The notes beneath the pieces were generated by a model. It was not told the DNA's origin, made no database searches, and saw only the letters and a list, made by a program, of their open reading frames with translations. A DNA stretch of 64,000 bases from Bacteroidaceae bacterium (lineage in GTDB: Bacteria; Bacteroidota; Bacteroidia; Bacteroidales; Bacteroidaceae): NCBI GenBank assembly GCA_045646965.1, contig JAZRLR010000006.1:234-64233 (forward strand). The letters are read 5' to 3'. Both the position numbers and the translations under genes were made by a program. This document shows, piece by piece, positions 10,491 through 42,297 of this stretch. Positions within the stretch are counted from its first letter, which is position 1, and each line of letters opens with the position of its first letter.

Positions 10491-10509
10491 CATTTAATGA
10501 AGTTAGTAT

Positions 10510-10941
10510 ATGAAAGTGCAGATAATAAATAAATCGAAACATCAGTTGCCTTCGTACGAGACAGTTTTGTCGGCAGGTATGGATTTGAGGGCAAATATCG
10601 ACGCTCCCATAGAACTGCAGCCCCTGCAGCGCACCCTCGTTCCCACAGGTCTTTTTATGGCCCTTCCCGCAGGCTACGAGGCGCAGGTGCGTCCCCGCAG
10701 CGGCCTTGCCATAAAGAAAGGAATCACCGTGCTCAACTCACCCGGAACCATCGACGCCGACTATCGCGGTGAGGTGTGCGTGATACTTGTAAACCTCTCT
10801 TCGGAGCCCTTTACCATCACCGACGGTGAGCGCATAGCGCAGATGGTAATTGCCCGCCACGAGCAGGTCGAGTGGAGCGAGGTCGAGGTGCTCGACGAGA
10901 CAGAGCGTGGAGCAGGCGGTTTTGGTCATACAGGAGTTTAA
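10510..10941 (+). CDS. dut: dUTP diphosphatase
   Basis: 143-aa ORF with the dUTPase motifs [23 protein letters not shown] and GGFGHTG. Confidence 0.95.
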
Positions 10942-10947
10942 GATAAT

Positions 10948-13471: not shown

Positions 13472-13482
13472 GCAAATAAAGA

Positions 13483-15944: not shown

Positions 15945-15957
15945 CTTTCTTCTCTTT

Positions 15958-16926: not shown

Positions 16927-16949
16927 TGTATGGTGTGTGTCGATGGTTA

Positions 16950-18152: not shown

Positions 18153-18183
18153 ATTATAATGTATATTATTTTATTGTTAATTT

Positions 18184-18741: not shown

Positions 18742-18742
18742 T

Positions 18743-19225
18743 TTATATATTGGGTATAATAGTTCTTAATGCTCGGAGTACAGCTCCACGGCTTGCGTCC
18801 TCTGCTATAATAAGCATCACTGTGTCGTCGCCCGCAAGGGTTCCTATAATCTCGGGGAACTCGTAGTTATCGATGTGATAGGCGAGTGTGCTTGCGTAGC
18901 TGGGCTTTGTGTGTATGACAGCTATGTTACCCGAGAATTTTATGGACAGAAAACCGTTTACCTCTTGCACTGGGGTGATGGGGCGCATTTCGCCGCTCTC
19001 TCCCTCGTGACGATATTGATGTGGGCGTGTCAGAACATATCGGTAACGCCCTTGAACACCTACGCTCTTCACAACCCGCAGCTGGTGAAGGTCGCGCGAC
19101 AGGGTGGCCTGTGTGAGCTTGAAACCCTCTTTGGCAAGCTCGCTCAACAGCTCCTCCTGGCTGCCTATCTCCTGCGTAGAGAGTATGAGGCGTATGGCGT
19201 CGAGACGTGAATTTTTTATCTTCAT
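18743..19225 (-). CDS. argR: Arginine repressor
   Basis: The listed ORF runs 18743-19273. It is trimmed to the ATG at 19225 (MKIKNSRLDAIRLILSTQEIGSQEELLSELAKEGFKLTQATLSRDLHQL...). It has the winged-helix N-domain and the C-terminal GTLAGDDTV oligomerisation/arginine-binding motif. Confidence 0.9.
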   Translation of the reverse strand: MKIKNSRLDAIRLILSTQEIGSQEELLSELAKEGFKLTQATLSRDLHQLRVVKSVGVQGRYRYVLTRPHQYRHEGESGEMRPITPVQEVNGFLSIKFSGNIAVIHTKPSYASTLAYHIDNYEFPEIIGTLAGDDTVMLIIAEDASRGAVLRALRTIIPNI

Positions 19226-19251
19226 AATTGTATATTTATTCTTGCGAGCTG

Positions 19252-19284
19252 CAAAAGTAGTATATTTACACAATTATGCATAAT
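19252..19284 (-). promoter_or_regulatory. Candidate arg operon promoter (-7 box TACTTTTG) with an adjacent 12-bp perfect palindrome ATTATGCATAAT
   Basis: On the minus strand, TACTTTTG (19259-19252) lies 27 nt upstream of the argR ATG. ATTATGCATAAT (19273-19284) is self-complementary, AT-rich and placed where a -33 element would be. Confidence 0.35.
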
Positions 19285-19322
19285 AATTTTACCGTTTTTT
19301 GCAAGAAATAGCAATAAAACGG

Positions 19323-19357
19323 TAAAAAATATGCAACAAAAGTTCTTTGCTGCATAT
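19323..19357 (-). terminator. Rho-independent terminator after the inositol-3-phosphate synthase gene
   Basis: The minus strand reads ATATGCAGCAAAG-AACT-TTTGTTGCATAT followed by TTTTTT. It lies 9 nt after the stop codon. Confidence 0.7.
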
Positions 19358-19365
19358 TTTGTCTG

Positions 19366-20667
19366 TCAATCGAGCTCCTGGTCGGCTTCGTACCCTGCAA
19401 ATTCCCTTATCTTGTTCTTGAGCATTGCAAACTGCTTGAACAGGTCGTGAACGGGTTTATCGCCATCTTTGTGCATAGGCGCCTTGCAGTAGAACGACAT
19501 AAATTCCTGTATGCCGCACTCGCCTGCGCGCAGTGCAATGTCGCTGAAGAGCACGAGGTCGAGCACCAGTGGGGCTGCAAGAATGGAGTCTCGGCAAAGG
19601 AAGTTCACCTTAATTGTCATAGGGTAGCCCATCCATCCGAAAATATCTATATTGTCCCAGCTCTCCTTCTCGTCGCCGCGGGGAGGGTAGTAGTTAATTC
19701 TCACCTTGTGATATATGTCCGAGTAGAGGTCGGGGTAGACGTCGCTGTCGAGGATATTGTCGAGAGCCGATGTCTTGCTGCGGCGTTTGGTCTCAAAGTT
19801 CTCGGGGTTGTCGAGCACCACGCCGTCGCGGTTGCCCAGGATATTTGTCGAGAACCAGCCTGTCACACCCAACTGACGGGTGAAGAAGGCAGGCGCAAGC
19901 ACTGTCTTCATCATTGTCTGGCCGCTCTTGAAGTCCTTGCCTGTGATGGGGACTTTTGTCTCCTCGGCAAGCTCCCACATTGCGGGTATGTCTATGCACA
20001 GGTTGGGCGCACCCATCACATAGGGGCATCCCTCGCGCATAGCTGCGTAGGCGTAGCACATACTTGGTGCGATGCGTGCTGTGTCGTCGGCTTTCATAGC
20101 CTCTTCAAAGGCTGCAACGCTGCCGTGAACCTGCTCGTCGCGGGGTATATATTTTTCAGTGCTCGCAATCCATATAACGACCACTCTGTCGCAATTGTTT
20201 TCTTTCTTAAAACTGCGTATATCCTCGCGCAACTGCTCGGTGAGCTCCCATCGGCTGCCGCCGGTTTTTACATTGGGGCCGTCTATGTTTGTGGCATAGC
20301 TCTTGTCAAAGAGGGCCTTGTATGGGCGAATGGCCTTCAGCTCCTCTTTCACGGGCTCGATGTCCTGCTGCTTGAGTACGCCCGCCTTTACAGCCGCGTC
20401 GTATGCGTCATCTTCGTATAAATCCCACGCTCCGAACACAATGTCGTCGAGTGAGGCAACGGGCACAATATCCTTCACCTCCTTATACACTTTTTCGCTG
20501 CCGCGTCCCAAGCGCATAATGCCCTCGCAGGCAAACGAGCCGGTGGGGCGTGAAAGTCCCTTGCGTGCCATCAACGTACCAATTATTGTAGTAGTGGTAA
20601 CTGCTCCCAGTCCCACGCACATAACTCCTAATTTTCCGTTTGCGGGTTTTACCCTGTTTCCTTTCAT
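19366..20667 (-). CDS. myo-Inositol-1-phosphate (inositol-3-phosphate) synthase
   Basis: 433-aa ORF. The N-terminal NAD-binding segment is LGVMCVGLGAVTTTTIIG. Overall length and internal blocks (GQTMMKTVLAPAF, NILGNRDG, SWDNIDIFGWMGYPM) fit bacterial/archaeal MIPS. Confidence 0.85.
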   Translation of the reverse strand: MKGNRVKPANGKLGVMCVGLGAVTTTTIIGTLMARKGLSRPTGSFACEGIMRLGRGSEKVYKEVKDIVPVASLDDIVFGAWDLYEDDAYDAAVKAGVLKQQDIEPVKEELKAIRPYKALFDKSYATNIDGPNVKTGGSRWELTEQLREDIRSFKKENNCDRVVVIWIASTEKYIPRDEQVHGSVAAFEEAMKADDTARIAPSMCYAYAAMREGCPYVMGAPNLCIDIPAMWELAEETKVPITGKDFKSGQTMMKTVLAPAFFTRQLGVTGWFSTNILGNRDGVVLDNPENFETKRRSKTSALDNILDSDVYPDLYSDIYHKVRINYYPPRGDEKESWDNIDIFGWMGYPMTIKVNFLCRDSILAAPLVLDLVLFSDIALRAGECGIQEFMSFYCKAPMHKDGDKPVHDLFKQFAMLKNKIREFAGYEADQELD

Positions 20668-22159: not shown

Positions 22160-23185
22160 TTAGTGTGCTTTAATCCAATGCCTTATAACGTCGATAAGCT
22201 CTGCCTGCATATATGTGCCATCGCTTCCTGCAGCATTTTGTTGAAAATCATCGATGCGCCACCCGCCAGCTTCGGAGACTATATACACCGTCAAGTCGAA
22301 GCTCCGCTCAAAGGTATCGTCGATGTAGTGCTTTGCTGTCACCACAGCACTGTACCTCGCGCACCCGGCGTCGTCTGTTTTTTTTGCAGGTGTCACGCTG
22401 TAGTTTACGGTGGTCTCATCTTGCAAAGCTCCCCACACGCTGCCGCCCCAAATCATTTCGCCAAGTTTGCACTCCCAGTATCGCACTTCGTTGTATATGC
22501 TTTTAAAGTGCTGTGAGCAGAATCTGTTTACAAAATCCTGTTCGTCATAGCAGCCTTTAGTGCTGTTGTGGTTTTTTTCAATCTCGTTGAACACATTTTT
22601 CAGGTGTGTGGTAATCTCTTTCTCCGCGTTTGGGGTGCGGGTAATGCCTTCTGCATACGGTTCCCTTTTTGGGGGAAATAAATCGCAGGCCTCGAGCAGA
22701 GTCTCTTTCATCAGCTCCGTGTCGGGGACTTCGTCTTCTATGAAGTCGTCGATGCACCAACCCTCGCCGTCGGGTATTACAAGCACATCATACTTTATCT
22801 GTTGTATATCTTTGTCGGTGTACTCGGCGACGATGGTTGCGCGGTAACTCTTTTTGGTGTCGCTGTCGCTTTTGCGCACATTAACCACCTTGTATGCAGC
22901 TGTTGCAAAATAGTCGTTTGTGCGGTACCAAATATCGCCACCGCCGAAGCGGAAAAGGCACTCTCTTATAATCTCTGTTTCCCAACGACGTGTCTCGTGG
23001 TAGAACTCTTTGTAGCGTTCCGAGCAATATTCTTCGAGCAATAGGCTGTCTCCCGTGCACAGGTTATTAGCGCAGTGCTCCACACGGTTATATACTTTTT
23101 GCAGAAAACACTCCACAGCCTTCTCGTTCTGCGCACATACGGGCAGAGCAAGAAACAGCGCGAGGATGATTGCTTGTTTTTTCAT
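22160..23185 (-). CDS. Secreted/lipoprotein of unknown function with an internal tandem duplication (DUF3828-like x2)
   Basis: 341-aa ORF with signal peptide MKKQAIILALFLALPVCAQ. The two ~135-aa halves align by eye: EKAVECFLQKVYNRVE...YCSERYKEFYHETRRWE...GEGWCIDDFIED versus EKEITTHLKNVFNEIE...FCSQHFKSIYNEVRYWE...AGGWRIDDFQQN. Confidence 0.6.
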   Translation of the reverse strand: MKKQAIILALFLALPVCAQNEKAVECFLQKVYNRVEHCANNLCTGDSLLLEEYCSERYKEFYHETRRWETEIIRECLFRFGGGDIWYRTNDYFATAAYKVVNVRKSDSDTKKSYRATIVAEYTDKDIQQIKYDVLVIPDGEGWCIDDFIEDEVPDTELMKETLLEACDLFPPKREPYAEGITRTPNAEKEITTHLKNVFNEIEKNHNSTKGCYDEQDFVNRFCSQHFKSIYNEVRYWECKLGEMIWGGSVWGALQDETTVNYSVTPAKKTDDAGCARYSAVVTAKHYIDDTFERSFDLTVYIVSEAGGWRIDDFQQNAAGSDGTYMQAELIDVIRHWIKAH

Positions 23186-23190: not shown

Positions 23191-23844
23191 TTACTTGTTT
23201 TTTCTCTCAAAGCGCTCCTCTTTCCACGCAATCTTTCCGGCGTGCAGCGCAAATATGATATACAAATATACCGCAGCGTCTATAATAACCATAATAAATC
23301 CGTGGTATATACCCCACACCAAGAGAACTATATCGCCTAAAAGGAGCAGTACAAAAAATACTCTCCAAGTATTTAGCTCCTTCGATGTGTGGGAGTAGCG
23401 CAGAGCCATCTGTGTGGGTAGTTTGGTGTGTGGCAGGGCTGCGAGGAATATGAGGTTTGTAGCAATGGCCAAGTATGCAGTGAGTACCAGCGCAACATAT
23501 ATGCCGAACATAAGAAACTCATCGTTGGAGGTAAAGCGCTCGTGTACTATCTGTGCCAAGAGAGCTGTTATATGTGCGATGTTCAGCAGCAGGAAAAGTT
23601 TCCACCCCTCTATTGCTTTTATTCTTGCGAAATGCTCCCACTTCCTTATCTTGAAAGCCATTTGAAACAGGGTAAAAACCACACCTGTGGTGAGTATACC
23701 CACGCCGAAATTAAGTATGTCGCAGCCAAGTATTACCTGTGTGGAACCCTCGTTGATAAATGCGATGCCTGTGGGAATGGCGGTAGCTCCTGCCAGGAGC
23801 AGCAGAGCGGCTGCCGCGATGGGGGATGTGAGATTCTTGAACAT
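23191..23844 (-). CDS. Integral membrane protein, unknown function (about 6 predicted TM segments)
   Basis: The listed ORF runs 23191-23883. The likely start is the ATG at 23844 (MFKNLTSPIAAAALLLLAG...). It has repeated hydrophobic ~20-aa stretches and ends 5 nt before the downstream gene. Confidence 0.55.
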   Translation of the reverse strand: MFKNLTSPIAAAALLLLAGATAIPTGIAFINEGSTQVILGCDILNFGVGILTTGVVFTLFQMAFKIRKWEHFARIKAIEGWKLFLLLNIAHITALLAQIVHERFTSNDEFLMFGIYVALVLTAYLAIATNLIFLAALPHTKLPTQMALRYSHTSKELNTWRVFFVLLLLGDIVLLVWGIYHGFIMVIIDAAVYLYIIFALHAGKIAWKEERFERKNK

Positions 23845-23943
23845 AACGCAAAATTTTCTTCTTGTGCGAATATAGTGAATCACTTTCTCAAATGCAAAGC
23901 AAACGGCAAATTTGTTGTGAAACCCTGCTGTGACAGAGCAGGT

Positions 23944-23984
23944 AAAAAATAGCCCGGCGAGCTCTTTGAAAGCTCGCCGGGGCT
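23944..23984 (-). terminator. Rho-independent terminator after the 2489-aa glycosidase gene
   Basis: Stem CCCGGCGAGCT (23953-23963) / AGCTCGCCGGG (23971-23981). On the minus strand it is followed by CTATTTTTT. Confidence 0.8.
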
Positions 23985-24005: not shown

Positions 24006-27000
24006 TTAAAATATCACTTTTTTGTTCTTGTAGATGAAGATACCCTTTGCTGGGGTGTTCACCTTGCGTCCGAAGAGGTCGTATACACTCTCCTCGTCTG
24101 CAGCCTCGTCGGTGATATCCTCAATGCCGGTGGTGCCGTTGAAGCGGAAGAAGAGAGCCTCTGCTGCGTCGCTCACATTCATATACATCTTGAATGCGTT
24201 GATGTGTGTGCCGTTGTATCTGCGCAGAACTATGCCGTTCTCTGCATCTGCGTCTGTCTGCAGGGTGTAGGGGTTGCCGAGCGAGCTTGTGGCAATCTTC
24301 TCAATGGTTCCCTCGAGCACATTGTCGGCAATTGTCGCCTCGCTCTTTGTTATGGCAAAGTTGTGGGTGCCCTGTGCAGCTTTCAATATCACGGCTGTGT
24401 TTGCGGGAATCACGCCATCCTCGATTGCTGCGAGGTCGATGTATTCGCCGTTGCGCACAGCGGTGTAGGCTGTCACCTCGGCAGGAATCTCAAGTGCCAC
24501 GGGGGCATAGAGGGTTGAATAGCCTGTGGTGCCCACTTTCACGGGAAGCTCTTTAACCTCAATAACCTTCCAGTCGCAGTTGTTTGGGGCGTAGTTGGTG
24601 TTGCGGTCTACACGGTTGCCGTTGTCATATACATACTTTGCTGCGCCGCTGTAGTCGGTGTGCAATGTGAAGTAGTTGTAGTTGCCGCTCTCGGCGTTGC
24701 GGAACTCTATGGTCTGTCCGTTGCTTGCGCCTATACCTCCGATGCAGCGTGTGCCGTTGGTGTATGTACCCTCGCTGTAGCTCAAGAGCTTGCTCTGGGC
24801 GGTGAGGTAGAAGATTGTGGTGGCTGTTGTGCCGTCGGCAATCATAGACATCTGTCCCGATGCTGTGTCGTAGGGGTTGGCACCATTCATATAGTTACCC
24901 GATACACGGCCCTGCAGACGGTAGAACGCTTCGCTCTTGGGGGCGGGGAAGGCTGCTGCCTTCACCTCATCGCTCATAACCTCGGAGAGGTCGATGGGTA
25001 CATATACGATATTATAGGCAAATGTGCCGTCGTCGGGGTCCTCCTCAAAGAGGAAACCTATGGTCTTTCCGTCGGGCAGAAGAGTCATTGTAGAGTAGGC
25101 CGAGCCTATGTGTGACACCTGAATGAGCTCTGACCATCCTGTGGCAATCTCGGCCGAGGTGTACTTCTTGTCTTCTATTACCTTATAATATATAGCTACG
25201 TTACTACGGTCTTTGCCCTGATAGCCGCGCTTGGGTATAGACTGCAAGAGCACGTTGCCCACACGCATAAGCTCGCCGTTGCAGTCGCTCGCGCCGAAGT
25301 TGCTCGAAGCCACGCCGTTCCAGCTACCCTCGCCATTGGCCTTGTCGGTGAAACTGAACACGTTGAAGTAGCGGCCGCCGCCTCTGCGCACGCTCACCAT
25401 AAGGTCGCCGTTGGGCAGCTCCTCCACCTTGGTCTCGTTACCCGCCGAGCAGGCCATACCGTTCTCTATGCCTCCCAGAATGTTCCAGCTCTCGCCGAAG
25501 TTATCCGAGTAAACCACATAGTTGGGGTAGCTGTTGTTTCCGTCGTCGTTGAGCACCACAACGCCGTATATACGATAATACTCGGCACCCTCTTTCTTGT
25601 AGCTCGACTGCAGCAGACGTCCCGAAGTGAGGAACAAACTGTATGCAGTGGGGAAGAGGGCATCCTCCTGTCCCAGGAAGTCGCCTGTTACATCGCTTAT
25701 CTCCCAGGTATCGCCGTCGTCTATTGTAACGATGCGTGCCACGCTGTTGTGGCTTGTAGATGTAGCCCAGTTGAAGCGCTGTTTACCTGCTACGGCCATA
25801 ACGAGGGTTTTGTTACTCTCGCGGTCGCTCACCACGGCTGCGTCGCCAAAGCCCACGTTAAAGACATTGCTGTTTCCGCCCTGTCCGTCGGCTACATAGT
25901 CCTCCTCGGTCCAGCTTATGCCGTCCCAGTCGAAGTAGCTTGCCGTGCTGCGGCGGAACATAATATCAACCTCTCCCATACCTATATCGTCGCCGCAGGT
26001 GCGGTAGTCGCTTATGGCGATAACCTTGCCGCTCTTTGTGACGGTTATCGCAGGTATGCGGTAGGGAGCGTTTGTGCTCTCCTTGCGATACCAGAAGAGA
26101 TACTGATATTTATTTTCGGTGTCTATGCCGTACTTGGCGGTTATAGTGAGGTCGCCGTCAAATGTGTAGTTTGTGAAATCGGTGGCTGTGGTCTCCTCGC
26201 CCTTGAAGAAACCTGTGTGGGTGTATCCACGGTAGAGCCAGGGCTCTGTGAGGGTGAAGGTACCCAGAGGCAGGTACACTGTTTTGCTTGTCTCGCCCAG
26301 CTTTAATATGGCATTTCCTGTTGTGCCGTTGCTGCTGAACGCCACCTCGGCTATGCGGGTGTTTGTGGGCAGGGGCTGTGTGCCATCTACCGCGACATTC
26401 AGTGTGAGGCAGCCCAGAACCTCAAAGTTCCACCAACCGCCGGTGTCTCCTGCGTTATACAATTTTATGTTGTAGCCCTTGCCGCCGTAGGCGTTCAAGG
26501 TCATATTTGTGTTTTCGCTCGGAACGATGGCATATCCGCTGGTTTTCTTTACAAGTTTCCAGGTTGTGGCGTTGGCAACTGCGGTCATTGTGGCTGCTGT
26601 GCCCTCGGTAGTTGCCGACACGTTGAGGGCGTATGCGCTGCCTGCTGCCTCGTTCTGCAGTTTGAAGCCGTCGGCAGTGCCCACAAGGTACCACACCTCG
26701 CGTGCGCTCTGTATGTTTGCAGGGTGTGTAGTTCCTGCCGCACCGTCGAAGTTGGTCTGGTTTGCTATTCCTGCGGTGTAGTTGTTATCGTTCACCATTC
26801 TCATACGCACCTTCTTTTCGCCAAAAGCCGAGGAGAATACCGCGAGCTCAAATTTCGCATATATAACTTGGTCGGCGGTGAGCTCGCTTATCTCGGTGAC
26901 AGGTACGCTGTGTGCCTCGTCGCTGAAGAAGCCTACGAAGCTGTATATGGGGTTGCACGATACCATATTAAGTGCGGGCGATGTAACGCTCCCGCCGTCA

Positions 27001-30000
27001 AATGTGGTGCTGTATGTGAACTCCTCGCCATTCCAGCTAAACACCGCGTCGGCGTTTGTCATATTGCTCTGTATGGTGAGGCTGCTGCCGAGGTAAGCGT
27101 CTATGGGTACGAAGACAAAGTCGGTACAGTAGTTCGAGTTTGTCTGGTCGTATGTTACAGAAGATTGGTCAAAACCTCCGTCGGCGTTTCTTATAACAAA
27201 GTAGTTGCTGCCGGCTGTGTGCAGGGTTACACCTGCGTGGCGTGTGCTTGCTGCAACAGTGAAATTGTGTTTACTGTCGCTCATACCTTTGTGGGCAAGG
27301 TAACGTCCTGCTTTATTTGCGAAATTGTACTTGCCGTCGCTCTCCACCGCAGCTGTCCAGATGTAGTTGTCGTTATTGCGGTACAGGGTAGTGCCGAGTG
27401 TGAGCGTGCCGCCGTTGCTATAGAGATAACGGTTGAGGAAGGCTCCGTCTTTGTATGTGTCGGCATATATATAGTGCTCGTGTCCCTCGATGGGCGAGCC
27501 CTCGGTGAGACCTTTGTTCCACTTATATACGCTGTTGAGCGCAGTGGCCTGCTCTGCGGTGGGGCTTTGCGCTGTGCGGTAGGCACGCACTGCGTCAAAT
27601 GTCTGTGCTACCTTTTCGTTGTTTGGCAGAATGTAGAACTCCGAGAAGGTGTAGAATACGGTGTTGTTATTTGTAGTGTTTACTGTGAAACGCAGATATT
27701 TGTATGCTGTTTCGGTGCTTATAAGCTCGCTGTAGTAGTCGAGCACGCTGCTGCTTGTGGGGAAACCGCTGCTTATAACGGTGATATTCTCCCAAGCGTC
27801 GCCGTCGGCAGAGCCCTGAATGGTTATCTTCGTGGGGCGGTTATTGTCGTTCTGACTGCGTTTCTTGAAATAGAAACGCCAGCTCTTTGCAGGGTTGTTG
27901 AGGGTTGCCTGCAGGTAGTGGCTTCCCTCTCCTATAGTGTTTCCATATCCGCTGTGGAAGAAGGTGGTGTAGTTGCCGTCGATGAGGTTTGCGTATGCGT
28001 TGCCGCTCTCCTGACTTGTGCTTGCGGGGTAGTTGCAGACAAACTGTCCGTCGCCCGCGATGCCTGTGCCCGCGTTTTTCACGAGGCCGTAGAAACGCTG
28101 CAAACCATATATGTTTATGTTTGCGTTCGACTCTACCGCTTCGTTAAGGGCTATGTCCTCGTCGGTAGCGGGGTACTCTATCTGTGAAACCTTTGCCGCA
28201 TTGAATGCCTCGTCAAAGAACTGCACCGAGCGCACCGAGCCTGCAAAAGTGTCCCAGCTTGTGGTGCTGTTTACCACGCCTGCGCCGATGTATATCTTTG
28301 CGTTCTCACTTGTGGCCTCGTTTGTGGCAATGTGTGCAAAGTCCTGAAAGGCGTTGCCCGGTGAGGCGGTGTTTCCGAGTGTACCGTTTATGTATGAGCT
28401 GAAGGTGTTATTGTCCTTGTCGAGCACAAATACCACCTTGTAGCTTGTAGATGCGTTCAAGGATGTGGAACCCGAGTATACATCTCCGCCGCGTGACGAT
28501 GTGATATAGGCGAGTTTGTTTCCGTTGAAGCCTGCGGCCACATAAGGTGAGGCTCCCGAGCCTATGGCCGAGGTCACGGGAGCTTTAGTAGGGTCGGCTG
28601 CGCACACAAGTACCTGACGGCCGCTCAATGAGGCGGGTGTCACAAGGTCGATGGCAATTGTGAGGTTTCTCTTTGAGAAAATCTTTGCCGCGGTTTCGTC
28701 GTCTATGGCAAAGGGGTAGGTGGCGTCGCGCAGCTGCTCAATCTTTGCAAAGGGCTGCGGGGCGATGTCGTCGGTCACATCGATGAAACGGTACTGACAG
28801 CCGTCGTCGTTTGTGTTTGTTCCGCTACCCCAGTTGAGGAGCTGGTAGCTGCCGTCTTTCTGCTGGTTGAACTGCGATGAGCCGCTCACAACTATCACAT
28901 AGCCGTTTGTTGCAGCTTTTTTAATTGTCCAGCCTGCCGAGGGGGTGGCTGTGACGCACTTCAGGGGTGAGCCGCTTGTGGTGATATATGTGCCGTCGGC
29001 GATGTTTACGATGTTATATGAGCCGTCGCCGCGTGACTCGAATCGCCATATAGAGGCTTTTGTGGTTGCCTCTGTGGGGCCTGTGATGGCTGCGTCGGCG
29101 CCGTTGCCTGTGGCATAGCGGTTGGCACGCAGAGGGGTACACATTCGATAGCAGTGTCCGTCCACGGGTTTGTTCATATTCTCGTTTGTGAGCGTTGCGA
29201 CAAAGGCTGTCCAAACCTGCTCAAGTGCGTTTATCTGCTCGTCGCGCTCGTCGGCTGTCATTGTAGCCGAATAGGTCGCCTCTATCTCTGCAATTTTTGC
29301 ATCTACGGCCTGTGCGGCGCTCTCGGGCCACATACCCACCGCTGTGCCTATGTATGAGCCGCGGTCGCGTTTCATCTGGCTTATCTTGGCTGCTACCTGC
29401 TCGGTGGCGTCGTCCTTGCACTGGTTGGGTGAGTAGATGAGGTTCTCCACGGCGTTCTTGCCCTGCTTGTCGGTAAACACACAGGTGAAGAGCCATTTGT
29501 TGAGGCGCACGCCGTTGGCTGAAACGTAGGGGAGTTTGATAAATACTTTGTTCCAGCCGGCTTTCAGAGTTATGGTAATGGGCTCGCGGGCGCTGAAGTT
29601 CTCGTTGCCGAGGTCTACTTCGCTGCCAATACCCTTGCCTGCATTTGTCCAGGTGGGGGGATTCACTCTCACGCCGTTAATCCAGATGTTGGAGCCTTTT
29701 CGGTCCCAGTTGCCGTTGTCGGGAGCTTTGTCGTTTTCGCTGCGTCCGTAGTTCTGGAACTCAATCTGTGCTCCCACCTCCTGCTCTGTGGGGCTGTAAA
29801 CGTATGTCCACGCATAGGCGGTGCGGTTCTCGTAGTTTGTTGTGCCGTAGTAGGTGGGGATGATACCGTTGCCCCAGGTGTGACGCAAGTAGATACCCGC
29901 ACCTGTTGCCATACCTGTGTAGTAGGTCACGCCGTCGTGTGTGAAGCTCTCTGCCATAAGGTCGGTGCTTGTGCTCTTGCCTTCCTCCTCGGGCGGGAAG

Positions 30001-31475
30001 ATAGCCGAAGCGTCGCCGTTATTGGGGAAAGCGTCTGTGATGCGCCAGCGCACGTTGGTCTGTTTTACATAGGGGATGGGCTCGTTCTTCAAAGAATTAG
30101 CCTTGTGGAAGAGGAAGCGACGCTCCCAGTCGGCAAACTCGTCAAACTCTTCGCCGCTGTTGGGAAGCATAGTTCCGCCTTTTTCTATGTAGAGCTTGCC
30201 ACCGCCTATCCAGGCACGCTCGGCGCTTGCAATCACGTTGGCATACATATTGTTTTGCTTCACGATGTCGCTCTCTGTGGGTGTCTTGCGGTCGTTCCAG
30301 TAGGCCGATATGGTTCCTGCAACCTCGCTGTTTCCCTGTTGCACATAGTAGATATTACTGCGGTAGATTCCCACTACATCGGCAAACACGTCGAAGTGGT
30401 TGGTGTAGTTGTATCGGCAGTCGATATTGGGTATGCCGCCGACTTTTGCGCCGCTGCTGCTCCACATCTGTGTCATATCGGCTGTGTTGCTGTTTATTGA
30501 GACGCCGCGTATGGGGTTCCACACAACTACCTTCTTGCCCAGGTTGTGTATGGTGTCGTTCATAATCTGGAGGAAGTTGGGATAGGTGATGCTCTCCTCG
30601 TCGGCACCTATGTGTATGTAGGGTGCGTCGGGGAACACATCTGCCACCTGTGTGAGGGTTGTGAGAAGCACCTGCACGCCCTGGTCTGTCTGCATAGAGA
30701 AGCCCATAGCACGGTCAAAGGCGTCGCTGTGTCCGGGCATATCAATCTCGGGAATTACAATCACACCGCGCTCTTTGGCATAAGCGGCCACATCGCGGCA
30801 CTGCTCCTGTGTGTAGTATTTTCCTGCGAAGCGTGTCATTGTGGAGTCGGCAGTGAGCTGGGGGTAGCCCATAACCTCGAAACGCCACGCCTGATTCTCG
30901 GTAAAGTGCCAGTGGAAACAGTTTACCTTGAAGCGCGACAGCAGGTTGATGTGTTTCTTTAGCTCCTCTACGCTGATAAATGAACGGCCTACGTCGTGCA
31001 TATAACCGCGCAGTTTGAAGGCTGCCCAGTCTTTTATCTGCACTGTCTCGATGGCCTCCGAGCCTTCGGCATATCCTTCGGCGAGCTGTGCGAGTGTCTG
31101 CGCTGCGCGTATCACTCCCGTGGGTGTCACGGCGGTGATATTTATTGCGTCGGCGGTAACGGTGAGTGTGTAGGCCTCGTTTTCAAAGCCCTCGAGCTCG
31201 TAGTCGTATGCTCCCTCGATGCTTTCTACAATCTGCACGTTTACGGGGGCACCGCCGGCTGTTATTTCGCAGCCGTATGTAGTGAATAAATTGCGCAATA
31301 GTGTGCTGCCTGTTGCGTCGCTGATTGTCACGGGACGGTTAAGTGCGAAGGCTGTTCCGCCTGTCTCTGTAACCGAGTGGGGTTTAGGCAGCAGGTGCGT
31401 TACCTTTGCCTGTGTCGCTGCCGGCATAAGAAGTGCCATTGCGGCAACGAGCGTTGCAATTAATTGTTTTCTCAT
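24006..31475 (-). CDS. Giant secreted bifunctional glycosidase: N-terminal GH20 beta-N-acetylhexosaminidase, lectin-like/LamG/discoidin/Listeria-Bacteroides-repeat modules, GH33 sialidase, T9SS-type C-terminal tail
   Basis: 2489-aa uninterrupted ORF with ATG start and signal peptide MRKQLIATLVAAMALLMPAATQA.
- GH20 motifs: HWHFTENQAWRFE, IPEIDMPGHSDAF, YIHIGADEES (D292, E293).
- GH33 motifs: YRIPAI (R1806), Asp boxes TIDDGDTW and SDNFGESW, GSAYSTMTLLPDG (Y2127).
- C-terminus: VYDLFGRKVNTPAKGIFIYKNKKVIF. Confidence 0.85.
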   Translation of the reverse strand: MRKQLIATLVAAMALLMPAATQAKVTHLLPKPHSVTETGGTAFALNRPVTISDATGSTLLRNLFTTYGCEITAGGAPVNVQIVESIEGAYDYELEGFENEAYTLTVTADAINITAVTPTGVIRAAQTLAQLAEGYAEGSEAIETVQIKDWAAFKLRGYMHDVGRSFISVEELKKHINLLSRFKVNCFHWHFTENQAWRFEVMGYPQLTADSTMTRFAGKYYTQEQCRDVAAYAKERGVIVIPEIDMPGHSDAFDRAMGFSMQTDQGVQVLLTTLTQVADVFPDAPYIHIGADEESITYPNFLQIMNDTIHNLGKKVVVWNPIRGVSINSNTADMTQMWSSSGAKVGGIPNIDCRYNYTNHFDVFADVVGIYRSNIYYVQQGNSEVAGTISAYWNDRKTPTESDIVKQNNMYANVIASAERAWIGGGKLYIEKGGTMLPNSGEEFDEFADWERRFLFHKANSLKNEPIPYVKQTNVRWRITDAFPNNGDASAIFPPEEEGKSTSTDLMAESFTHDGVTYYTGMATGAGIYLRHTWGNGIIPTYYGTTNYENRTAYAWTYVYSPTEQEVGAQIEFQNYGRSENDKAPDNGNWDRKGSNIWINGVRVNPPTWTNAGKGIGSEVDLGNENFSAREPITITLKAGWNKVFIKLPYVSANGVRLNKWLFTCVFTDKQGKNAVENLIYSPNQCKDDATEQVAAKISQMKRDRGSYIGTAVGMWPESAAQAVDAKIAEIEATYSATMTADERDEQINALEQVWTAFVATLTNENMNKPVDGHCYRMCTPLRANRYATGNGADAAITGPTEATTKASIWRFESRGDGSYNIVNIADGTYITTSGSPLKCVTATPSAGWTIKKAATNGYVIVVSGSSQFNQQKDGSYQLLNWGSGTNTNDDGCQYRFIDVTDDIAPQPFAKIEQLRDATYPFAIDDETAAKIFSKRNLTIAIDLVTPASLSGRQVLVCAADPTKAPVTSAIGSGASPYVAAGFNGNKLAYITSSRGGDVYSGSTSLNASTSYKVVFVLDKDNNTFSSYINGTLGNTASPGNAFQDFAHIATNEATSENAKIYIGAGVVNSTTSWDTFAGSVRSVQFFDEAFNAAKVSQIEYPATDEDIALNEAVESNANINIYGLQRFYGLVKNAGTGIAGDGQFVCNYPASTSQESGNAYANLIDGNYTTFFHSGYGNTIGEGSHYLQATLNNPAKSWRFYFKKRSQNDNNRPTKITIQGSADGDAWENITVISSGFPTSSSVLDYYSELISTETAYKYLRFTVNTTNNNTVFYTFSEFYILPNNEKVAQTFDAVRAYRTAQSPTAEQATALNSVYKWNKGLTEGSPIEGHEHYIYADTYKDGAFLNRYLYSNGGTLTLGTTLYRNNDNYIWTAAVESDGKYNFANKAGRYLAHKGMSDSKHNFTVAASTRHAGVTLHTAGSNYFVIRNADGGFDQSSVTYDQTNSNYCTDFVFVPIDAYLGSSLTIQSNMTNADAVFSWNGEEFTYSTTFDGGSVTSPALNMVSCNPIYSFVGFFSDEAHSVPVTEISELTADQVIYAKFELAVFSSAFGEKKVRMRMVNDNNYTAGIANQTNFDGAAGTTHPANIQSAREVWYLVGTADGFKLQNEAAGSAYALNVSATTEGTAATMTAVANATTWKLVKKTSGYAIVPSENTNMTLNAYGGKGYNIKLYNAGDTGGWWNFEVLGCLTLNVAVDGTQPLPTNTRIAEVAFSSNGTTGNAILKLGETSKTVYLPLGTFTLTEPWLYRGYTHTGFFKGEETTATDFTNYTFDGDLTITAKYGIDTENKYQYLFWYRKESTNAPYRIPAITVTKSGKVIAISDYRTCGDDIGMGEVDIMFRRSTASYFDWDGISWTEEDYVADGQGGNSNVFNVGFGDAAVVSDRESNKTLVMAVAGKQRFNWATSTSHNSVARIVTIDDGDTWEISDVTGDFLGQEDALFPTAYSLFLTSGRLLQSSYKKEGAEYYRIYGVVVLNDDGNNSYPNYVVYSDNFGESWNILGGIENGMACSAGNETKVEELPNGDLMVSVRRGGGRYFNVFSFTDKANGEGSWNGVASSNFGASDCNGELMRVGNVLLQSIPKRGYQGKDRSNVAIYYKVIEDKKYTSAEIATGWSELIQVSHIGSAYSTMTLLPDGKTIGFLFEEDPDDGTFAYNIVYVPIDLSEVMSDEVKAAAFPAPKSEAFYRLQGRVSGNYMNGANPYDTASGQMSMIADGTTATTIFYLTAQSKLLSYSEGTYTNGTRCIGGIGASNGQTIEFRNAESGNYNYFTLHTDYSGAAKYVYDNGNRVDRNTNYAPNNCDWKVIEVKELPVKVGTTGYSTLYAPVALEIPAEVTAYTAVRNGEYIDLAAIEDGVIPANTAVILKAAQGTHNFAITKSEATIADNVLEGTIEKIATSSLGNPYTLQTDADAENGIVLRRYNGTHINAFKMYMNVSDAAEALFFRFNGTTGIEDITDEAADEESVYDLFGRKVNTPAKGIFIYKNKKVIF
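24009..24134 (-). other. T9SS-type C-terminal sorting tail of the GH20-GH33 protein
   Basis: aa 2448-2489 read TGIEDITDEAADEESVYDLFGRKVNTPAKGIFIYKNKKVIF. This resembles Por_Secre_tail/TIGR04183-type endings (Y-D-L-x-G-R-x-V ... G-I-Y-I ... K-K-V-I). Confidence 0.65.
24996..26108 (-). other. GH33 sialidase (exo-alpha-sialidase) beta-propeller module
   Basis: aa ~1790-2160. It contains the Y-R-I-P motif, two recognisable Asp boxes, ELPNGDLMVSVR, and the nucleophile-type Tyr in GSAYSTM followed by LLPDGKTIGFLFEED. Confidence 0.8.
27621..28103 (-). other. F5/8 type C (discoidin, CBM32-like) module
   Basis: aa ~1125-1285 read NLIDGNYTTFFHSGY...HYLQATLNNPAKSWRFYFKKR...RPTKITIQGSADGDAWENI...YKYLRFTV. 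Confidence 0.6.
28206..28673 (-). other. LamG/concanavalin-like lectin module
   Basis: aa ~935-1090 read LTIAIDLVTPASLSGRQVLVCAAD...YKVVFVLDKDNNTFSSYINGTLG...IYIGAG...FAGSVRSVQFFDEAF. This is a typical laminin-G_3-like pattern. Confidence 0.5.
30096..31037 (-). other. GH20 catalytic (beta/alpha)8 module
   Basis: aa ~147-460 contain RGYMHDVGRSF, HWHFTENQAW, PEIDMPGH and HIGADE (the catalytic D-E pair). Confidence 0.85.
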
Positions 31476-31529: not shown

Positions 31530-31564
31530 CTGCGGCAGGGTGCTATGCTTGCGCCCTGCCGCAG
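31530..31564 (-). terminator. GC-rich hairpin between the two same-strand glycosidase genes (weak terminator or processing site)
   Basis: Stem CTGCGGCAGGG (31530-31540) / CCCTGCCGCAG (31554-31564), 13-nt loop. No clean T-run follows on the minus strand. Confidence 0.35.
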
Positions 31565-31581
31565 TCTATCTATGTAGTTTC

Positions 31582-34500
31582 TTATTTTACAAGAACTTTC
31601 TCGCCGTTTACGATGTAGAGGCCGGGAGACGAAATGCTCTCCACTTTGTTTCCTCGTATGTCGTAGATGGCGCTGTTGCCGTTGCACTCCTCAACTTCCA
31701 CAATCTCGGTGGGCACCTGCACGTCGCTCTTCTGGAACTCCCAAGTACAAGCTCCCCAGAAGGGCTTTGTGAGTATATAGTTCCACGATGCGGGGTTGGT
31801 GTACCAGCTTGTGCTTCCGCTCTTGTCGATGATGCAGATACCTGTCTTGCCGTCGAGGTTACGCTCCTCGAGGCTCCACGCATACTCCTCGCCAAGTTTT
31901 ATGGCCTGCTCGCCGTTGTGCGCTGTGGGGTAGGCTGCGGTGCCTGTGGCTTTGTTGTAGATGTAGATAGTGCCGTCGTTGTTTTTCACGATGCTCCACA
32001 GCATATAGTCGTTGCTGCTCTTTGCCATAGGAGCCACAATTTCGTTTCCGCTGTTGTAGCCTGCATACTTGCCGAACCACACATTGTAGATGTAATAGTA
32101 GTAATCCTCGCTCATACTCTGCGCGATGCTTGCCTTCTCCATCATTTGGAATGTGTGGTAGAGCGCAACGTATGCGTTGTACTGCGCCTCGCTCACTGCA
32201 CCGCTCTTGAGAGTCTCCTTGGCAGGGGTGATAACACTGTTCTGCAGGTAGTCGAGCGCCTCGGCTGTGTAGGAGTTCATCTCGCCGGGAGTTGTGGTGA
32301 GCAGAATAATCTCGCCCTTCTTTACAAGGCCCTGCAGCTGTGCGGTGAAGTCGTTCACCTCCACAATCTTCCAGGTACCGTTGTAGCAGAGCGCGGCGTT
32401 GTCCTTGGCATATACATCGCCCGATACCTCGGCGCTCAATCGTTTCACGCTGCCTGTCACCTGCTCGCTATAGCCCTCTACCGCCGAAATTGTGACAACT
32501 CCGGGGATATATGTGAAGTTCTGTGTGGCGATGGTCGCTTTGTCTATTCTCACGGGAGTTCCATTCTCCGAGAGTGACACGGTGCTGTTATATGCTCCCA
32601 TTGTGAGCTGCTCGCCGCTGTATGCGTTGGTTATAATGTAGCCGCCGTCGGTTGCGGTGAAGCTCCACAGTTCTTCGGGCTCTGTCTGTGGGGTGTAATG
32701 GAAACGCACGCCGTTGCCTTTCTGATACATTGTAGAGCCCACATACTGACGTTCATATTGTGTAGATGCAGAAACAATCTGATAGTATTTGCCCTCCTGC
32801 GGCATTGTCACGGGAGCGTTCTTATAGTTCTCTATCGCCTCGGCAAGAGCCTCTACATCCTCGCCGTTGCACAGGCTGTAAAGCATCTCAAGAGCGTCGT
32901 AGAGCTCTGCTCCGGGGTAGCCTATGCCGCCGCGCACGCTGCCTGCGAGAATCTCTTTGGCCTCGTTCATAACCTTCTCGGCGTCGCTGTACTTTGTGGG
33001 CTCGATGTAGTGCTTTGCATACTTGTAGTCGAGCAACTCAAATATCTCGTCGTGGCTCTGCAAGCGCTTGTAGAACGAAGTCCAGTTCTTCTGCACTGTG
33101 GGCAACCAGCCAATCTCGGCGAGAGCGAGCAGACGGGGAAGCAACTGATACTCCACCTCGTCGATGTCGTTTGTAGTCTCGGTCCACATATTTCCCTGCA
33201 CACCCAGAGCATAGCTCTCGCGTCCCTGCAAGTTGCTCACGGGGTTGAGGCCGTAAATTTCCTCCAAGGTGTTCACGCCCCAGCCGCCGTTGTAGAGCTC
33301 GTCCACAAAGCGGTTGTTTGCGTCACTCTGCATAAAATCGAGGTAGAGGTGGCTGTAGGGCACAATAATTGATTTCATTCCTCTGTCGGCAGCTGTGGCG
33401 CTGTAGCCTATGCCGTTCCACGCCATAATCACGGGCTTTATTTTGTTATTGTCGTTCCAGTGGCTCAGAAGCTCGTCCCACACCACAATGTCCTTGCCGT
33501 GCTTCTCTTTTACATAGGTTCCGAGTTCCTCTACAAGCCACGACTGCAGCTGGTTCACGCCGTTGAGGCCGAGCTGTTCCACTCTTGCAAGGCACTGCGC
33601 GTTGGTGCTCCACTGTCCCGTGGGGCACTCGTCGCCGCCGAAGTGTATGTACTTGTGGGGGAAGATGGCTGCAAGGTTGTCCATAATGCACTTGAGGAAG
33701 TCGATGACACGGTCGTCACCTATGTTGAGCACGTCGTGCGAGATACCGCCGTCTACGCGCACCTCGTATTTCTTTGAGGGGTCGCAGCTGAACTCGGGGT
33801 AGGCTGTCACGGCTGCCACCATATGTCCGGGGAGGTCTATCTCGGGCATAATCTCGATGTTACGCGCAAGGGCATACGCCACAACCTCTTTCAGGTCTTC
33901 CTGTGAGTACCACATTCCGCGTCCATACTCTGTGTCGTCGTAGAAGTTTTGTCCGTCGCTTGCGTTGCTGAACGAGGCCTTGCGTATAGAACCAACCTCG
34001 GTGAGCTTGGGATATTCGGGTATCTCGATGCGCCATCCCTGGTCGTCGGTGAGGTGCCAATGGAAACGGTTCATCTTGTAGAACGCAAGAATGTCGAGCA
34101 CTTTTTTAACTTCCTCTTTATTAAAGAAGTGGCGTGCGATGTCGAGCATATATCCGCGGTGACCGAGTGTGGGGCGGTCGTTTATATCGAGGTAGGGGAT
34201 GTCCCACTCTGTGCCGCTCTGCAACTTGTCGGCAAAGAAGGCGCGGGGCAGCATCTGCTTCAATGTCTGCAAGGCGTAGAAATATCCTGCAAAGCCCGAA
34301 GCCTTTATCTCGATGCTCTTCTCGCCCACGGTAAGCGTGTAGGCCTCCTCGGGCAGGGTGCTGTCGCTGCCGAACCATATCTCGCCCTCGCAGCAGCTCT
34401 CGCCGGCGCTCTTCATCTGCAGTGCGATGCCCGACACCTTGGCAAGCTGTGTGGCAAACTCGTTGAGGTGTGCCTGCATCTGCGCGTCGTTGCAGGCGAT

Positions 34501-35103
34501 GGCGTTGAGGCTGCTCAATGCGAAGCGTCCCTCCTTTATCACTTCGAGCTGTGTGGGCTGTGGTATGATAGAAATCTTGCCAAGCTCGGCAAATGTAGCT
34601 GCATCGACAAATGTCACGGGGTTATTGGGGTCGTTTGAACTGTTCCACAAACCCACGCCGCGGTTGTCGGTGGGGCCGCCCCACAGGTTCATAGAGATGC
34701 CTGTGTTGCCCTTGGGGTGAATCTCAAATGCACCGTTGAATTCACTGTAGGGTGTGGGGGTGATGAAGAAATCGCACACGCCCTCGCTGCCTGCTGTGGT
34801 GTTGCGCACCTTCTCGTTGAGGCTTGCCGAGTTTACATAGAGTGTGTAACCCTTTTTGTTTGTGAAGCGGTATCCGTCGGTGTCGTTACCTGTGATTTTC
34901 CACTGCTCCTCGTCGCTTCCGGTGGGCATAGCAACCTTCGCTTCGCCTCTGTCGCTTGTCGAAGCGATGGCCTTTCCGCCGTTCATAAACTGTATGATAT
35001 ACCACTTGACGTTGTCGCCGTCACTTACGACGGGAAACCCTTGTGCGCATAGCGATGTGAGCCCTGCGCAAAGTAAAAGAATTGCTGAAAAAAGCTTTTT
35101 CAT
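31582..35103 (-). CDS. Secreted GH20 beta-N-acetylhexosaminidase with three lectin-like modules and a T9SS-type C-terminal tail
   Basis: 1173-aa ORF with signal peptide MKKLFSAILLLCAGLTSLCAQ. GH20 motifs: RGYMLDIARHF, HWHLTDDQGWRIE, MPEIDLPGH, YIHFGGDECP (D491, E492). C-terminus: IYDIRGNKVESISSPGLYIVNGEKVLVK. Confidence 0.9.
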   Translation of the reverse strand: MKKLFSAILLLCAGLTSLCAQGFPVVSDGDNVKWYIIQFMNGGKAIASTSDRGEAKVAMPTGSDEEQWKITGNDTDGYRFTNKKGYTLYVNSASLNEKVRNTTAGSEGVCDFFITPTPYSEFNGAFEIHPKGNTGISMNLWGGPTDNRGVGLWNSSNDPNNPVTFVDAATFAELGKISIIPQPTQLEVIKEGRFALSSLNAIACNDAQMQAHLNEFATQLAKVSGIALQMKSAGESCCEGEIWFGSDSTLPEEAYTLTVGEKSIEIKASGFAGYFYALQTLKQMLPRAFFADKLQSGTEWDIPYLDINDRPTLGHRGYMLDIARHFFNKEEVKKVLDILAFYKMNRFHWHLTDDQGWRIEIPEYPKLTEVGSIRKASFSNASDGQNFYDDTEYGRGMWYSQEDLKEVVAYALARNIEIMPEIDLPGHMVAAVTAYPEFSCDPSKKYEVRVDGGISHDVLNIGDDRVIDFLKCIMDNLAAIFPHKYIHFGGDECPTGQWSTNAQCLARVEQLGLNGVNQLQSWLVEELGTYVKEKHGKDIVVWDELLSHWNDNNKIKPVIMAWNGIGYSATAADRGMKSIIVPYSHLYLDFMQSDANNRFVDELYNGGWGVNTLEEIYGLNPVSNLQGRESYALGVQGNMWTETTNDIDEVEYQLLPRLLALAEIGWLPTVQKNWTSFYKRLQSHDEIFELLDYKYAKHYIEPTKYSDAEKVMNEAKEILAGSVRGGIGYPGAELYDALEMLYSLCNGEDVEALAEAIENYKNAPVTMPQEGKYYQIVSASTQYERQYVGSTMYQKGNGVRFHYTPQTEPEELWSFTATDGGYIITNAYSGEQLTMGAYNSTVSLSENGTPVRIDKATIATQNFTYIPGVVTISAVEGYSEQVTGSVKRLSAEVSGDVYAKDNAALCYNGTWKIVEVNDFTAQLQGLVKKGEIILLTTTPGEMNSYTAEALDYLQNSVITPAKETLKSGAVSEAQYNAYVALYHTFQMMEKASIAQSMSEDYYYYIYNVWFGKYAGYNSGNEIVAPMAKSSNDYMLWSIVKNNDGTIYIYNKATGTAAYPTAHNGEQAIKLGEEYAWSLEERNLDGKTGICIIDKSGSTSWYTNPASWNYILTKPFWGACTWEFQKSDVQVPTEIVEVEECNGNSAIYDIRGNKVESISSPGLYIVNGEKVLVK
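31585..31719 (-). other. T9SS-type C-terminal sorting tail of the GH20 protein
   Basis: aa 1129-1173 read QVPTEIVEVEECNGNSAIYDIRGNKVESISSPGLYIVNGEKVLVK. Confidence 0.65.
33064..34185 (-). other. GH20 catalytic module
   Basis: aa ~307-680. See the motifs listed for the parent CDS. Confidence 0.85.

Positions 35104-35355: not shown

Positions 35356-42297
<6,942 letters not shown>

Follow-up and report, generated by a model that had tools for sequence, protein, structure and literature searches.

A predicted fusion of GH20 hexosaminidase and GH33 sialidase modules in a 2489-residue protein of a Bacteroidaceae contig, and its mosaic relatives

The DNA analysed here (the window) is a stretch of 64,000 nucleotides (nt) from contig JAZRLR010000006.1 of a Bacteroidaceae bacterium (assembly GCA_045646965.1). 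On the minus strand of the window, at 24006..31475, a single open reading frame (ORF) runs through 2489 uninterrupted codons to one terminal stop and encodes a multi-modular glycosidase, with a module of glycoside hydrolase family 20 (GH20) in its N-terminal part and a module of family 33 (GH33) in its C-terminal part. The DNA has a G+C content of 52–54% and, in such DNA, an ORF of this length is no chance event. The same 7470-nt ORF occurs in an independent European Nucleotide Archive assembly (locus L047) with 98.5% nt identity and zero indels, and the gene order and flanking genes there match those of the window. An earlier, sequence-only reading of the window had placed both glycosidases in one uninterrupted frame and had pointed to a frameshift or stop that might split it; the comparison with L047 reveals none, and about 120 homologues are continuous in the same way. 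The residues singled out in that reading are also exactly where it placed them (D292-E293 in HIGADEE, R1806 in YRIP, and Y2127 in SAYSTM). The gene is genuine and an assembly accident can be discounted. In an exact look-up, the protein sequence of the window is absent from the protein records; a recorded protein (P0001) is 99% identical to it.

The GH20 module starts with the N-terminal domain GH20b at amino acids (aa) 27–150 (31026..31397, on the minus strand like all features of this gene; PF02838, E = 3e-13), followed by the catalytic (beta/alpha)8 barrel at aa 153–470 (30066..31019; PF00728, E = 4e-37). Both Pfam matches are above their cut-offs. The best solved relative is Hex1 of Paenibacillus sp. 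TS12 (PDB 3GH4; phmmer E = 4e-40 over aa 11–343), and a family profile carries the alignment to 4PYS of Bacteroides fragilis as far as aa 432. With an AlphaFold2 (AF2) model of aa 1–700 (predicted local distance difference test, pLDDT, 83; predicted template-modelling score, pTM, 0.87), Foldseek finds, at E = 1e-29, the same Paenibacillus Hex1, BT0459, and GH20 enzymes of Akkermansia. The H-x-G-x-D-E motif of the family (HIGADEE, with D292-E293) aligns with IHLGGDES of 3GH4, as well as with 4PYS, 7CBN, and 6EZR, and W393-x-D395 is aligned to the W-t-D of 4PYS. Among 119 homologues with GH20 identities of 60–91%, no variation is seen at R156 (the putative substrate-binding Arg), at D292 and E293, at the candidate Trp cage (W319, W338, and W393), or at D395. 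The module is thus best explained as a substrate-assisted retaining beta-N-acetylhexosaminidase, in which D292 would orient the 2-acetamido group and E293 would serve as the acid/base. Its specificity, for N-acetylglucosamine (GlcNAc), N-acetylgalactosamine (GalNAc), 6-sulfo-GlcNAc, or as a lacto-N-biosidase, is not deducible from the sequence. In this type of GH20, the barrel is always followed by a beta-sandwich, here at aa 471–690 (29406..30065; AF2 strands between 476 and 668, no Pfam hit). This sandwich is as conserved as the barrel (62–95% identity across the family) and is kept even in unfused relatives of 690 aa.

The GH33 module forms the exo-alpha-sialidase propeller at aa ~1790–2165 (24981..26108). 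It is aligned over ~420 aa to Td-NanH of Treponema denticola (PDB 10QF, E = 5e-47); aa 1739–2171 are covered by a match to 10QF at E = 1e-46 and by the NCBIfam model NeuramTDE0471 (NF052328, E = 4e-62); 8GN6, 8FEB, and 1EUR are further PDB matches. The catalytic set of Td-NanH consists of R140, D165, E338, R354, R423, and Y463 (PMC12889680), and R1806, D1830, E2014, R2030, R2090, and Y2127 of the window protein align with these one-to-one, D1830 being aligned to the residue changed in the D165A structure of Td-NanH. All six are invariant in the same 119 homologues, although GH33 identity varies there from 38% to 95%. The YRIP motif occupies aa 1805–1808. Two loose Asp-boxes are seen, at aa 1917 (TIDDGDTW) and aa 1990 (SDNFGESW); in Td-NanH there are three only (PMC12889680). 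The fold predicted by homology to solved sialidases is a six-bladed beta-propeller. A Td-NanH-like exo-alpha-sialidase is the best explanation, with Y2127/E2014 as the putative nucleophile pair, D1830 as acid/base, and R1806/R2030/R2090 as the Arg triad.

Between the window and L047, 78 codon differences are synonymous and 31 non-synonymous. Synonymous and non-synonymous changes stand at 22:3 for the GH20 module and at 4:1 for GH33, and the replacements lie mostly in the binding modules. As judged from the codons, both catalytic modules are under purifying selection. The invariance of the residues and the scarcity of non-synonymous changes therefore make both modules look functional and constrained, and either would be expected to have enzymatic activity. 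The sequence-only reading had considered both active sites to look intact and had named missing catalytic residues as the finding that would speak against it; in the alignments to solved relatives, all six GH33 residues and the D-E pair of GH20 are present.

Between the post-GH20 sandwich and the sialidase, two linkers and several further modules follow each other. A helical linker at aa ~695–770 (29166..29393; AF2 helix from residue 689, weak DUF1542-like hit) leads to a first ricin-B-like beta-trefoil at aa ~780–905 (28761..29138; PF14200, 32 bits, above cut-off). Next come a LamG/ConA-like module at aa ~935–1097 (28185..28673; PF13385, Laminin_G_3, over 969–1097, E = 2.3e-6, 28.3 bits vs. 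a cut-off of 27.6) and an F5/8 type C module (discoidin, CBM32-like) at aa ~1125–1285 (27621..28103; PF00754 over 1151–1275, E = 1e-11; PDB 3F2Z and 2J7M). The second linker, helical or of low complexity (aa ~1285–1320), precedes a weak second beta-trefoil at aa ~1325–1475 (27051..27503; PF14200, E = 0.056), which is 29% identical to the first over 82 aa. It is followed by a small beta-rich module with a motif like that of the Listeria–Bacteroides repeat, assigned on that motif alone (aa ~1476–1545; 26841..27050), and by a third beta-trefoil at aa ~1555–1700 (26376..26813; PF14200, E = 1.4e-5, 26.2 bits vs. a cut-off of 25.6).

The domain directly before the sialidase, at aa ~1701–1785 (26121..26375), has no Pfam hit and appears homologous to the N-terminal domain of Td-NanH, annotated by its authors as pfam09479/InlB-like (PMC12889680). 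The phmmer alignment to 10QF begins at aa 1745, chain residue 66, and aa 1745–1785 align with residues ~66–110 of Td-NanH at the low-confidence edge of the longer alignment. Two strings, at aa 1513–1542 and 1750–1782, had been taken for Listeria–Bacteroides repeats. The second does align to the pfam09479 domain of Td-NanH, but neither is recovered by the corresponding profile (PF09479, Flg_new; no match at E ≤ 1 in aa 1470–1560 or 1690–1800).

Beyond the propeller, a fourth beta-trefoil at aa ~2183–2315 (24531..24929) has no Pfam hit and is recognized from AF2 (pLDDT ~80–90) and Foldseek, with matches to SeviL, BEL, and the CBM13 of Ct1,3Gal43A (TMt 0.6). An unclassified beta-sandwich at aa ~2319–2445 (24141..24521; AF2 strands with pLDDT ~90, no library hit) closes the folded part and recurs as the C terminus of many homologues. 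The modules would bind sugars, as judged from their fold families, and they stay putative binding modules here. The figure of at least seven given earlier was about right, with the post-GH20 sandwich, the four trefoils, the LamG-like module, and the F5/8-C module. For the last two, already named in that account, the F5/8-C match is above the Pfam cut-off and that of Laminin_G_3 is marginally above it. Its list of parts was nevertheless incomplete: the signal peptide is missing from it, as are the two beta-sandwiches (after GH20 and at the C terminus), the tail, the fourth trefoil, and the neighbouring genes.

A Sec-type signal peptide without lipobox Cys is read at aa 1–23 (MRKQLIATLVAAMALLMPAATQA, followed by KV; 31407..31475). 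Its n-region is basic, a hydrophobic core follows, and cleavage is placed between A-T-Q-A and K; this N terminus is conserved in the homologues; the AF2 pLDDT is <50 for aa 1–21. At the other end, a conserved tail of 27 residues (aa 2463–2489, VYDLFGRKVNTPAKGIFIYKNKKVIF; 24009..24089), shared with the GH20 protein encoded next to it and with unfused relatives, is a candidate sorting signal. Its pattern, Y-D-L-x-G-R-x-V-x(2-5)-K-G-I-Y-I-x-N-G-K-K-V, is found again in the window at 31582–31665 (minus strand) and at the C termini of L026, L031, and L032. The tail resembles, in a truncated-looking form, the last strands of a sorting domain of the type IX secretion system (T9SS). With the C-terminal 180 aa, only six unnamed fragments are found in a set of 5.8 billion proteins. 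Genes for the T9SS machinery do not occur within the 64-kb window. Export of the protein across the outer membrane is presumed.

Upstream and co-directional, at a distance of 106 nt, a gene for a canonical GH20 protein of 1173 aa, which has a ricin-B module and ends in a similar tail, occupies 31582..35103 (minus strand; PF00728, E = 2e-104; PF02838; PF14200). Its Pfam match is full-length, and ~175 N-terminal aa are without family match. The 106-nt spacer contains a perfect 11-bp hairpin without T-run (31530–31565, minus strand). Divergently oriented, at 35368..42297 (plus strand), lies a gene for another fusion protein, of 2309 aa, with a GH84 beta-GlcNAcase at aa 153–443 (PF07555, E = 7e-112), a ricin-B module at ~956–1027, a LacZ-type GH2 at aa 1207–2221 (PF02836, E = 4e-80), and a T9SS type A sorting domain (TIGR04183); NF041654 and NF052611 match it as well. 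The GH84 and GH2 activities are consecutive on N-acetyllactosamine (LacNAc), unlike those of GH20 and GH33.

The three adjacent genes encode a sialidase, a beta-galactosidase, and three enzymes acting on beta-linked N-acetylhexosamine (HexNAc). By family assignment, this set is a full exo-glycosidase complement for stripping sialylated host glycans of the LacNAc type. All three glycosidase genes are found together only in L047, which belongs to the same species; L002 keeps the downstream genes only. Since the trio is syntenic only in L047, we regard it as a lineage-specific cluster and not as a conserved operon.

On the other side of the fusion gene, 25 nt past its stop, a hairpin with a 13-bp stem and a T-run (23953..23981, minus strand) is likely a terminator. 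Directly downstream are two ORFs without family match, one for a membrane-like protein of 230 aa (23191–23883, minus strand) and one for a protein of 341 aa with a signal peptide (22160–23185, minus strand); L002 and L047 have both at the corresponding position. The remainder of the 64 kb consists of housekeeping genes (rpoB/C, arginine genes, PNPase, parE, and others), and a CotH kinase-like protein is encoded among them (56859–58133, plus strand; PF08757, E = 2e-33). We did not observe SusC or SusD among the ~30 large ORFs of the window, nor nan catabolic genes nearby in it. Membership in a polysaccharide utilization locus (PUL) was rejected, as the window has no SusC/SusD pair.

The fusion is not restricted to this locus. 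Among the candidates scored in a protein search, 432 reached E ≤ 1e-10, and nearly all of the best 120 homologues (1800–2830 aa) have both GH20 and GH33. In total, the fusion is present in >100 protein clusters from metagenome-assembled genomes (MAGs) of ruminant hindgut, with shuffled middle modules. All 46 related loci come from MAGs labelled Bacteroidaceae, Alloprevotella, or Prevotellaceae and, where the titles name a source, it is the gut of sheep, goat, cattle, yak, buffalo, or deer. The host is best explained as an uncultured herbivore-hindgut member of the Bacteroidales, in the Prevotella/Alloprevotella group.

The two halves also exist separately, and relatives with separate halves had been suggested as a means of dating the fusion. 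Proteins of ~690 aa (L030, L038, L039) consist of just the GH20 core and its sandwich, and in others of ~950–1100 aa (L026, L029, L031–L034) one trefoil and the tail are added. Conversely, goat and other hindgut MAGs have the half from F5/8-C to GH33 without GH20, in proteins of ~3000 aa (L042, 1757–10717; L045, 11252–20275), with sialidases 53–54% identical to that of the window. The idea of a singular fusion event is not sustained, the fusion being that of a widespread mosaic family in those >100 clusters. In L045, the gene of the GH33 giant adjoins one for a GH89 (alpha-N-acetylglucosaminidase) protein of 2133 aa (4379–10780). In this clade, giant enzymes for host glycans seem to be a recurrent feature.

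The mosaic is apparent in the identities. The GH20 block (60–80% identity) is paired with two types of GH33 that have ~40% mutual identity and are both closest to Td-NanH, while trefoil, LamG, and F5/8-C modules accompany it in variable combinations. In proteins of the P0015 type, identity is 74% in GH20 and 41% in GH33; in P0018, P0025, and P0055, the values are 61–74% and 74–77%. Such identities suggest a stable GH20 block around which modules have been exchanged repeatedly. In 39 of the 120 homologues, an intact metzincin motif (HExxHxxGxxH) is added after the sialidase. In P0048, for example, the reprolysin-like metzincin is at aa 2172–2322 with the motif HELGHMFGAVH. Such relatives reach 2600–2830 aa, and a chain with GH20, GH33, and a metalloprotease could possibly act as a self-contained mucinase.

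The reading that we favour, and consider likely, is that of a Sec-exported giant modular exo-glycosidase with two competent modules, which would strip host glycans together with the neighbouring enzymes. After export via Sec, the lectin-like modules (four trefoils, LamG-like, F5/8-C, and the sandwiches) would hold the chain on sialylated mucins, shed glycoproteins, or glycolipids. The sialidase would take off N-acetylneuraminic acid (Neu5Ac) or N-glycolylneuraminic acid, and the tethered GH20 would next remove beta-GlcNAc or beta-GalNAc. This HexNAc might be bared directly, in GalNAc-beta-1,4[Neu5Ac-alpha-2,3]Gal of the Sd(a)/GM2 type or in sialyl-LacdiNAc, or else after the beta-galactosidase of the neighbouring GH84–GH2 protein has acted. 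The three genes would then form a PUL-independent extracellular kit for complex host glycans. Both the substrates and the cooperation between the modules are presumed in this scheme.

The nearest functional precedent is SiaBb3 of Bifidobacterium bifidum, a single polypeptide that unites a GH33 sialidase with a beta-N-acetylgalactosaminidase of family GH123 (J Biol Chem 2025, PMC12856340). It degrades Sd(a)/GM2 in an obligate order, Neu5Ac then GalNAc (PMC12856340). As in the window protein, an exo-sialidase and a substrate-assisted beta-HexNAc-ase are on one secreted chain, and the host of SiaBb3 is a gut mucin forager. The differences are several: the HexNAc-ase is a GH123 there and a GH20 here (no GH123 is detected in the window protein); the sialidase of SiaBb3 is described as highly divergent, that of the window being a canonical Td-NanH-like GH33; additional binding modules make up ~1300 aa of the window protein, whose domain order may be reversed; and the hosts belong to Actinomycetota and Bacteroidota, respectively. 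We found no evidence of homology between SiaBb3 and the GH20–GH33 fusions, and any functional correspondence would therefore be a convergence. For the Paenibacillus GH20, the closest solved relative of the GH20 here, activity on the glycolipids GA2 and Gb4 is reported (PMC12856340).

Several observations weigh against the favoured reading. For GH33, PF13088 (BNR_2) gives no match at E ≤ 0.01, and the score with NF052328 is 210 bits vs. an equivalog cut-off of 900 bits; the module is therefore a divergent GH33 and not an orthologue of TDE0471. The sub-threshold BNR_2 is probably the reason why the records name these proteins only "family 20 glycosylhydrolase." For GH20, Pfam aligns just 116 of the 348 profile positions, the C-terminal half being divergent, and aa 320–470 of the model are of moderate confidence (pLDDT 62–89). 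Moreover, Y355, Y357, and Y371 are all invariant, which leaves the active-site Tyr ambiguous among them. As to export, neither TIGR04183 nor PF18962 has a match in 25 tails (that of the window protein, those of 14 homologues, and those of five unfused relatives included; E ≤ 1 or E ≤ 10), whereas the neighbouring GH84–GH2 protein, taken as positive control, matches TIGR04183 with 23.8 bits vs. a cut-off of 23. T9SS cargo status is thus not assigned to the fusion protein and, with its tail missed by the T9SS models, a surface or extracellular location is what we infer. Of the "surface protein" of the sequence-only reading, the signal peptide and the conserved C-terminal tail are what remains, without the match to a T9SS sorting domain.

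The chemistry of the substrates also bears on the proposal. The commonest sialoglycans have Neu5Ac-Gal-GlcNAc termini, where Neu5Ac and the beta-HexNAc are separated by a galactose, and the activities of GH33 and GH20 are not consecutive there. Two activities acting on different steps of the same glycan, as first suggested, may thus be consecutive, or meet at a single branch point, only in epitopes such as Sd(a)/GM2, for which SiaBb3 is a precedent, or sialyl-LacdiNAc. Finally, the mosaic evolution fits opportunistic shuffling as well as a selected synergy.

Such shuffling leads to the alternative that survives best, although we find it doubtful: both modules would be active, but independently and on different glycans, the fusion being a by-product of module shuffling. 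Its retention would be due to the joint export of several enzymes, at fixed stoichiometry, by a single signal peptide and a single sorting tail. The mosaic character of the family is in line with this, with a GH20 block paired with two GH33 types, variable modules, and a metzincin in about a third of the best homologues, and so are the GH33 half without GH20 in the 3000-aa proteins and the GH20 core alone, with the same tail, in proteins of 690–1100 aa; the neighbouring gene, moreover, fuses another pair, GH84 and GH2. However, almost all of the 120 best homologues have kept GH20 with GH33 although everything between the two has been shuffled, which argues for selection on the pair, and the analogous pair in SiaBb3 is functionally coupled.

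A bolder proposal goes in the opposite direction, and we rate its chances as rather low. The family could be a convergent counterpart of SiaBb3 in Bacteroidota, a two-step machine with a mechanistically required tether, dedicated to branched or directly capped sialyl-beta-HexNAc epitopes (Sd(a)/Cad/GM2 or sialyl-LacdiNAc) on mucins of the colon and on glycolipids. If so, the action of one module on a given galactose or GalNAc would lay bare the substrate of the other on that very sugar, the metzincin-bearing relatives of 2600–2830 aa would be self-contained trifunctional "mucinases," and Prevotella-like bacteria of the herbivore hindgut would have a PUL-independent, fused-enzyme strategy for host glycans.

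Less probable still is a secreted polyprotein, in which the 2489-aa precursor would be cut after export into GH20, GH33, and adhesin-like fragments. The gingipain/HagA polyproteins of Porphyromonas gingivalis are the analogue. The linkers between modules (aa ~695–770 and ~1285–1320), helical or of low complexity, would suit such cuts; a protease module is on the same chain in relatives, and the organism uses cargo of the T9SS type. Yet the window protein has no recognizable processing site and no protease, and multi-modular carbohydrate-active enzymes (CAZymes) mostly remain intact.

That one of the "enzymes" is a catalytically dead lectin, with a single activity in the protein, we hold to be very improbable. 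The C-terminal half of GH20 is atypical and GH33 is under the curated family thresholds, but all the canonical catalytic residues of both families are invariant in the 119 homologues and non-synonymous changes are scarce in both modules; a degenerate, lectin-like catalytic module was discounted on account of that invariance. Two adjacent genes falsely joined by an assembly chimera or a hidden frameshift, conceivable in what is evidently a metagenome-assembled contig with MAGs as its only relatives, are hardly credible given the identical frame and gene order in L047, which rule out the chimera, and the same continuous architecture in >100 clusters from various studies and host species.

The Sec-exported two-enzyme glycosidase that we favour can be set beside other known systems. 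Td-NanH (TDE0471; PDB 10QF, 10QG, and 10QH; PMC12889680) is the best solved relative of its GH33, and the two have in common the six catalytic residues, few Asp-boxes and, probably, the pre-propeller pfam09479/InlB-like domain. Td-NanH is, however, a single-enzyme protein of 543 aa, and its identity to the GH33 of the window is about 35–40%. For GH20, Hex1 (3GH4, 3GH7, and 3SUR) is the best match in sequence and fold and has the same H-x-G-x-D-E motif, but the identity is ~24% over the fold, the C-terminal half of the barrel diverges, and the post-barrel sandwich of 220 aa is specific to the GH20–GH33 family.

In Streptococcus pneumoniae (NanA, BgaA, and StrH) and in the nanH-nahA/B/C operon of Bacteroides fragilis, sequential deglycosylation is performed by separate proteins. 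The set of activities is the same as in the three adjacent genes here, where the activities are fused pairwise, as GH20–GH33 and GH84–GH2. Secreted proteins of very large size, with catalytic and carbohydrate-binding modules joined in one chain, are likewise known outside PULs. The cellulases of "Candidatus Paraporphyromonas polyenzymogenes" from the rumen are multi-catalytic, are secreted by the T9SS with recognizable TIGR04183 domains, and act on plant polysaccharides; the tail of the window protein, by contrast, is unmatched by T9SS models. The GH84 and GH33 toxins of Clostridium perfringens are multi-modular, with CBM32 and CBM40, and have one catalytic module each.

Multi-modular and multi-catalytic CAZymes are thus already known, as is a bifunctional sialidase/beta-GalNAc-ase; the bifunctionality of SiaBb3 was called "unique" in December 2025 (PMC12856340). 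For a GH20–GH33 or a GH84–GH2 fusion, we found no description in the literature, and papers on ruminant MAGs tally CAZy families without describing the GH20–GH33 fusion. The pairing of GH20 with GH33, the size, the spread in the herbivore hindgut, and the trifunctional relatives all appear to be undescribed.

Sialidase and beta-hexosaminidase are among the activities that decide whether a gut bacterium can feed on host mucus, and a non-homologous version of the SiaBb3 idea, with GH20 and GH33, is common in uncultured Bacteroidales of the ruminant hindgut. If the modules cooperate, the family would offer ready-made enzymes for multi-step deglycosylation, a handle on the livestock hindgut bacteria that erode or recycle mucus, and a natural experiment on the fusion of exo-glycosidases. 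If they do not, the family would still be a clear case of combinatorial shuffling in secreted CAZymes.

Two further arrangements were observed among the related loci. A smaller gene with trefoil and GH33 modules stands beside the fusion gene in L003 (21551–23329), L006 (24140–26854), L027 (10499–12961), and L036 (10598–12367). In L022, two convergent copies of the fusion gene (9292–14574, plus strand, and 15095–20377, minus strand) have identical per-domain identities to the query, and the pair reflects an inverted duplication or else an artefact of palindromic assembly.

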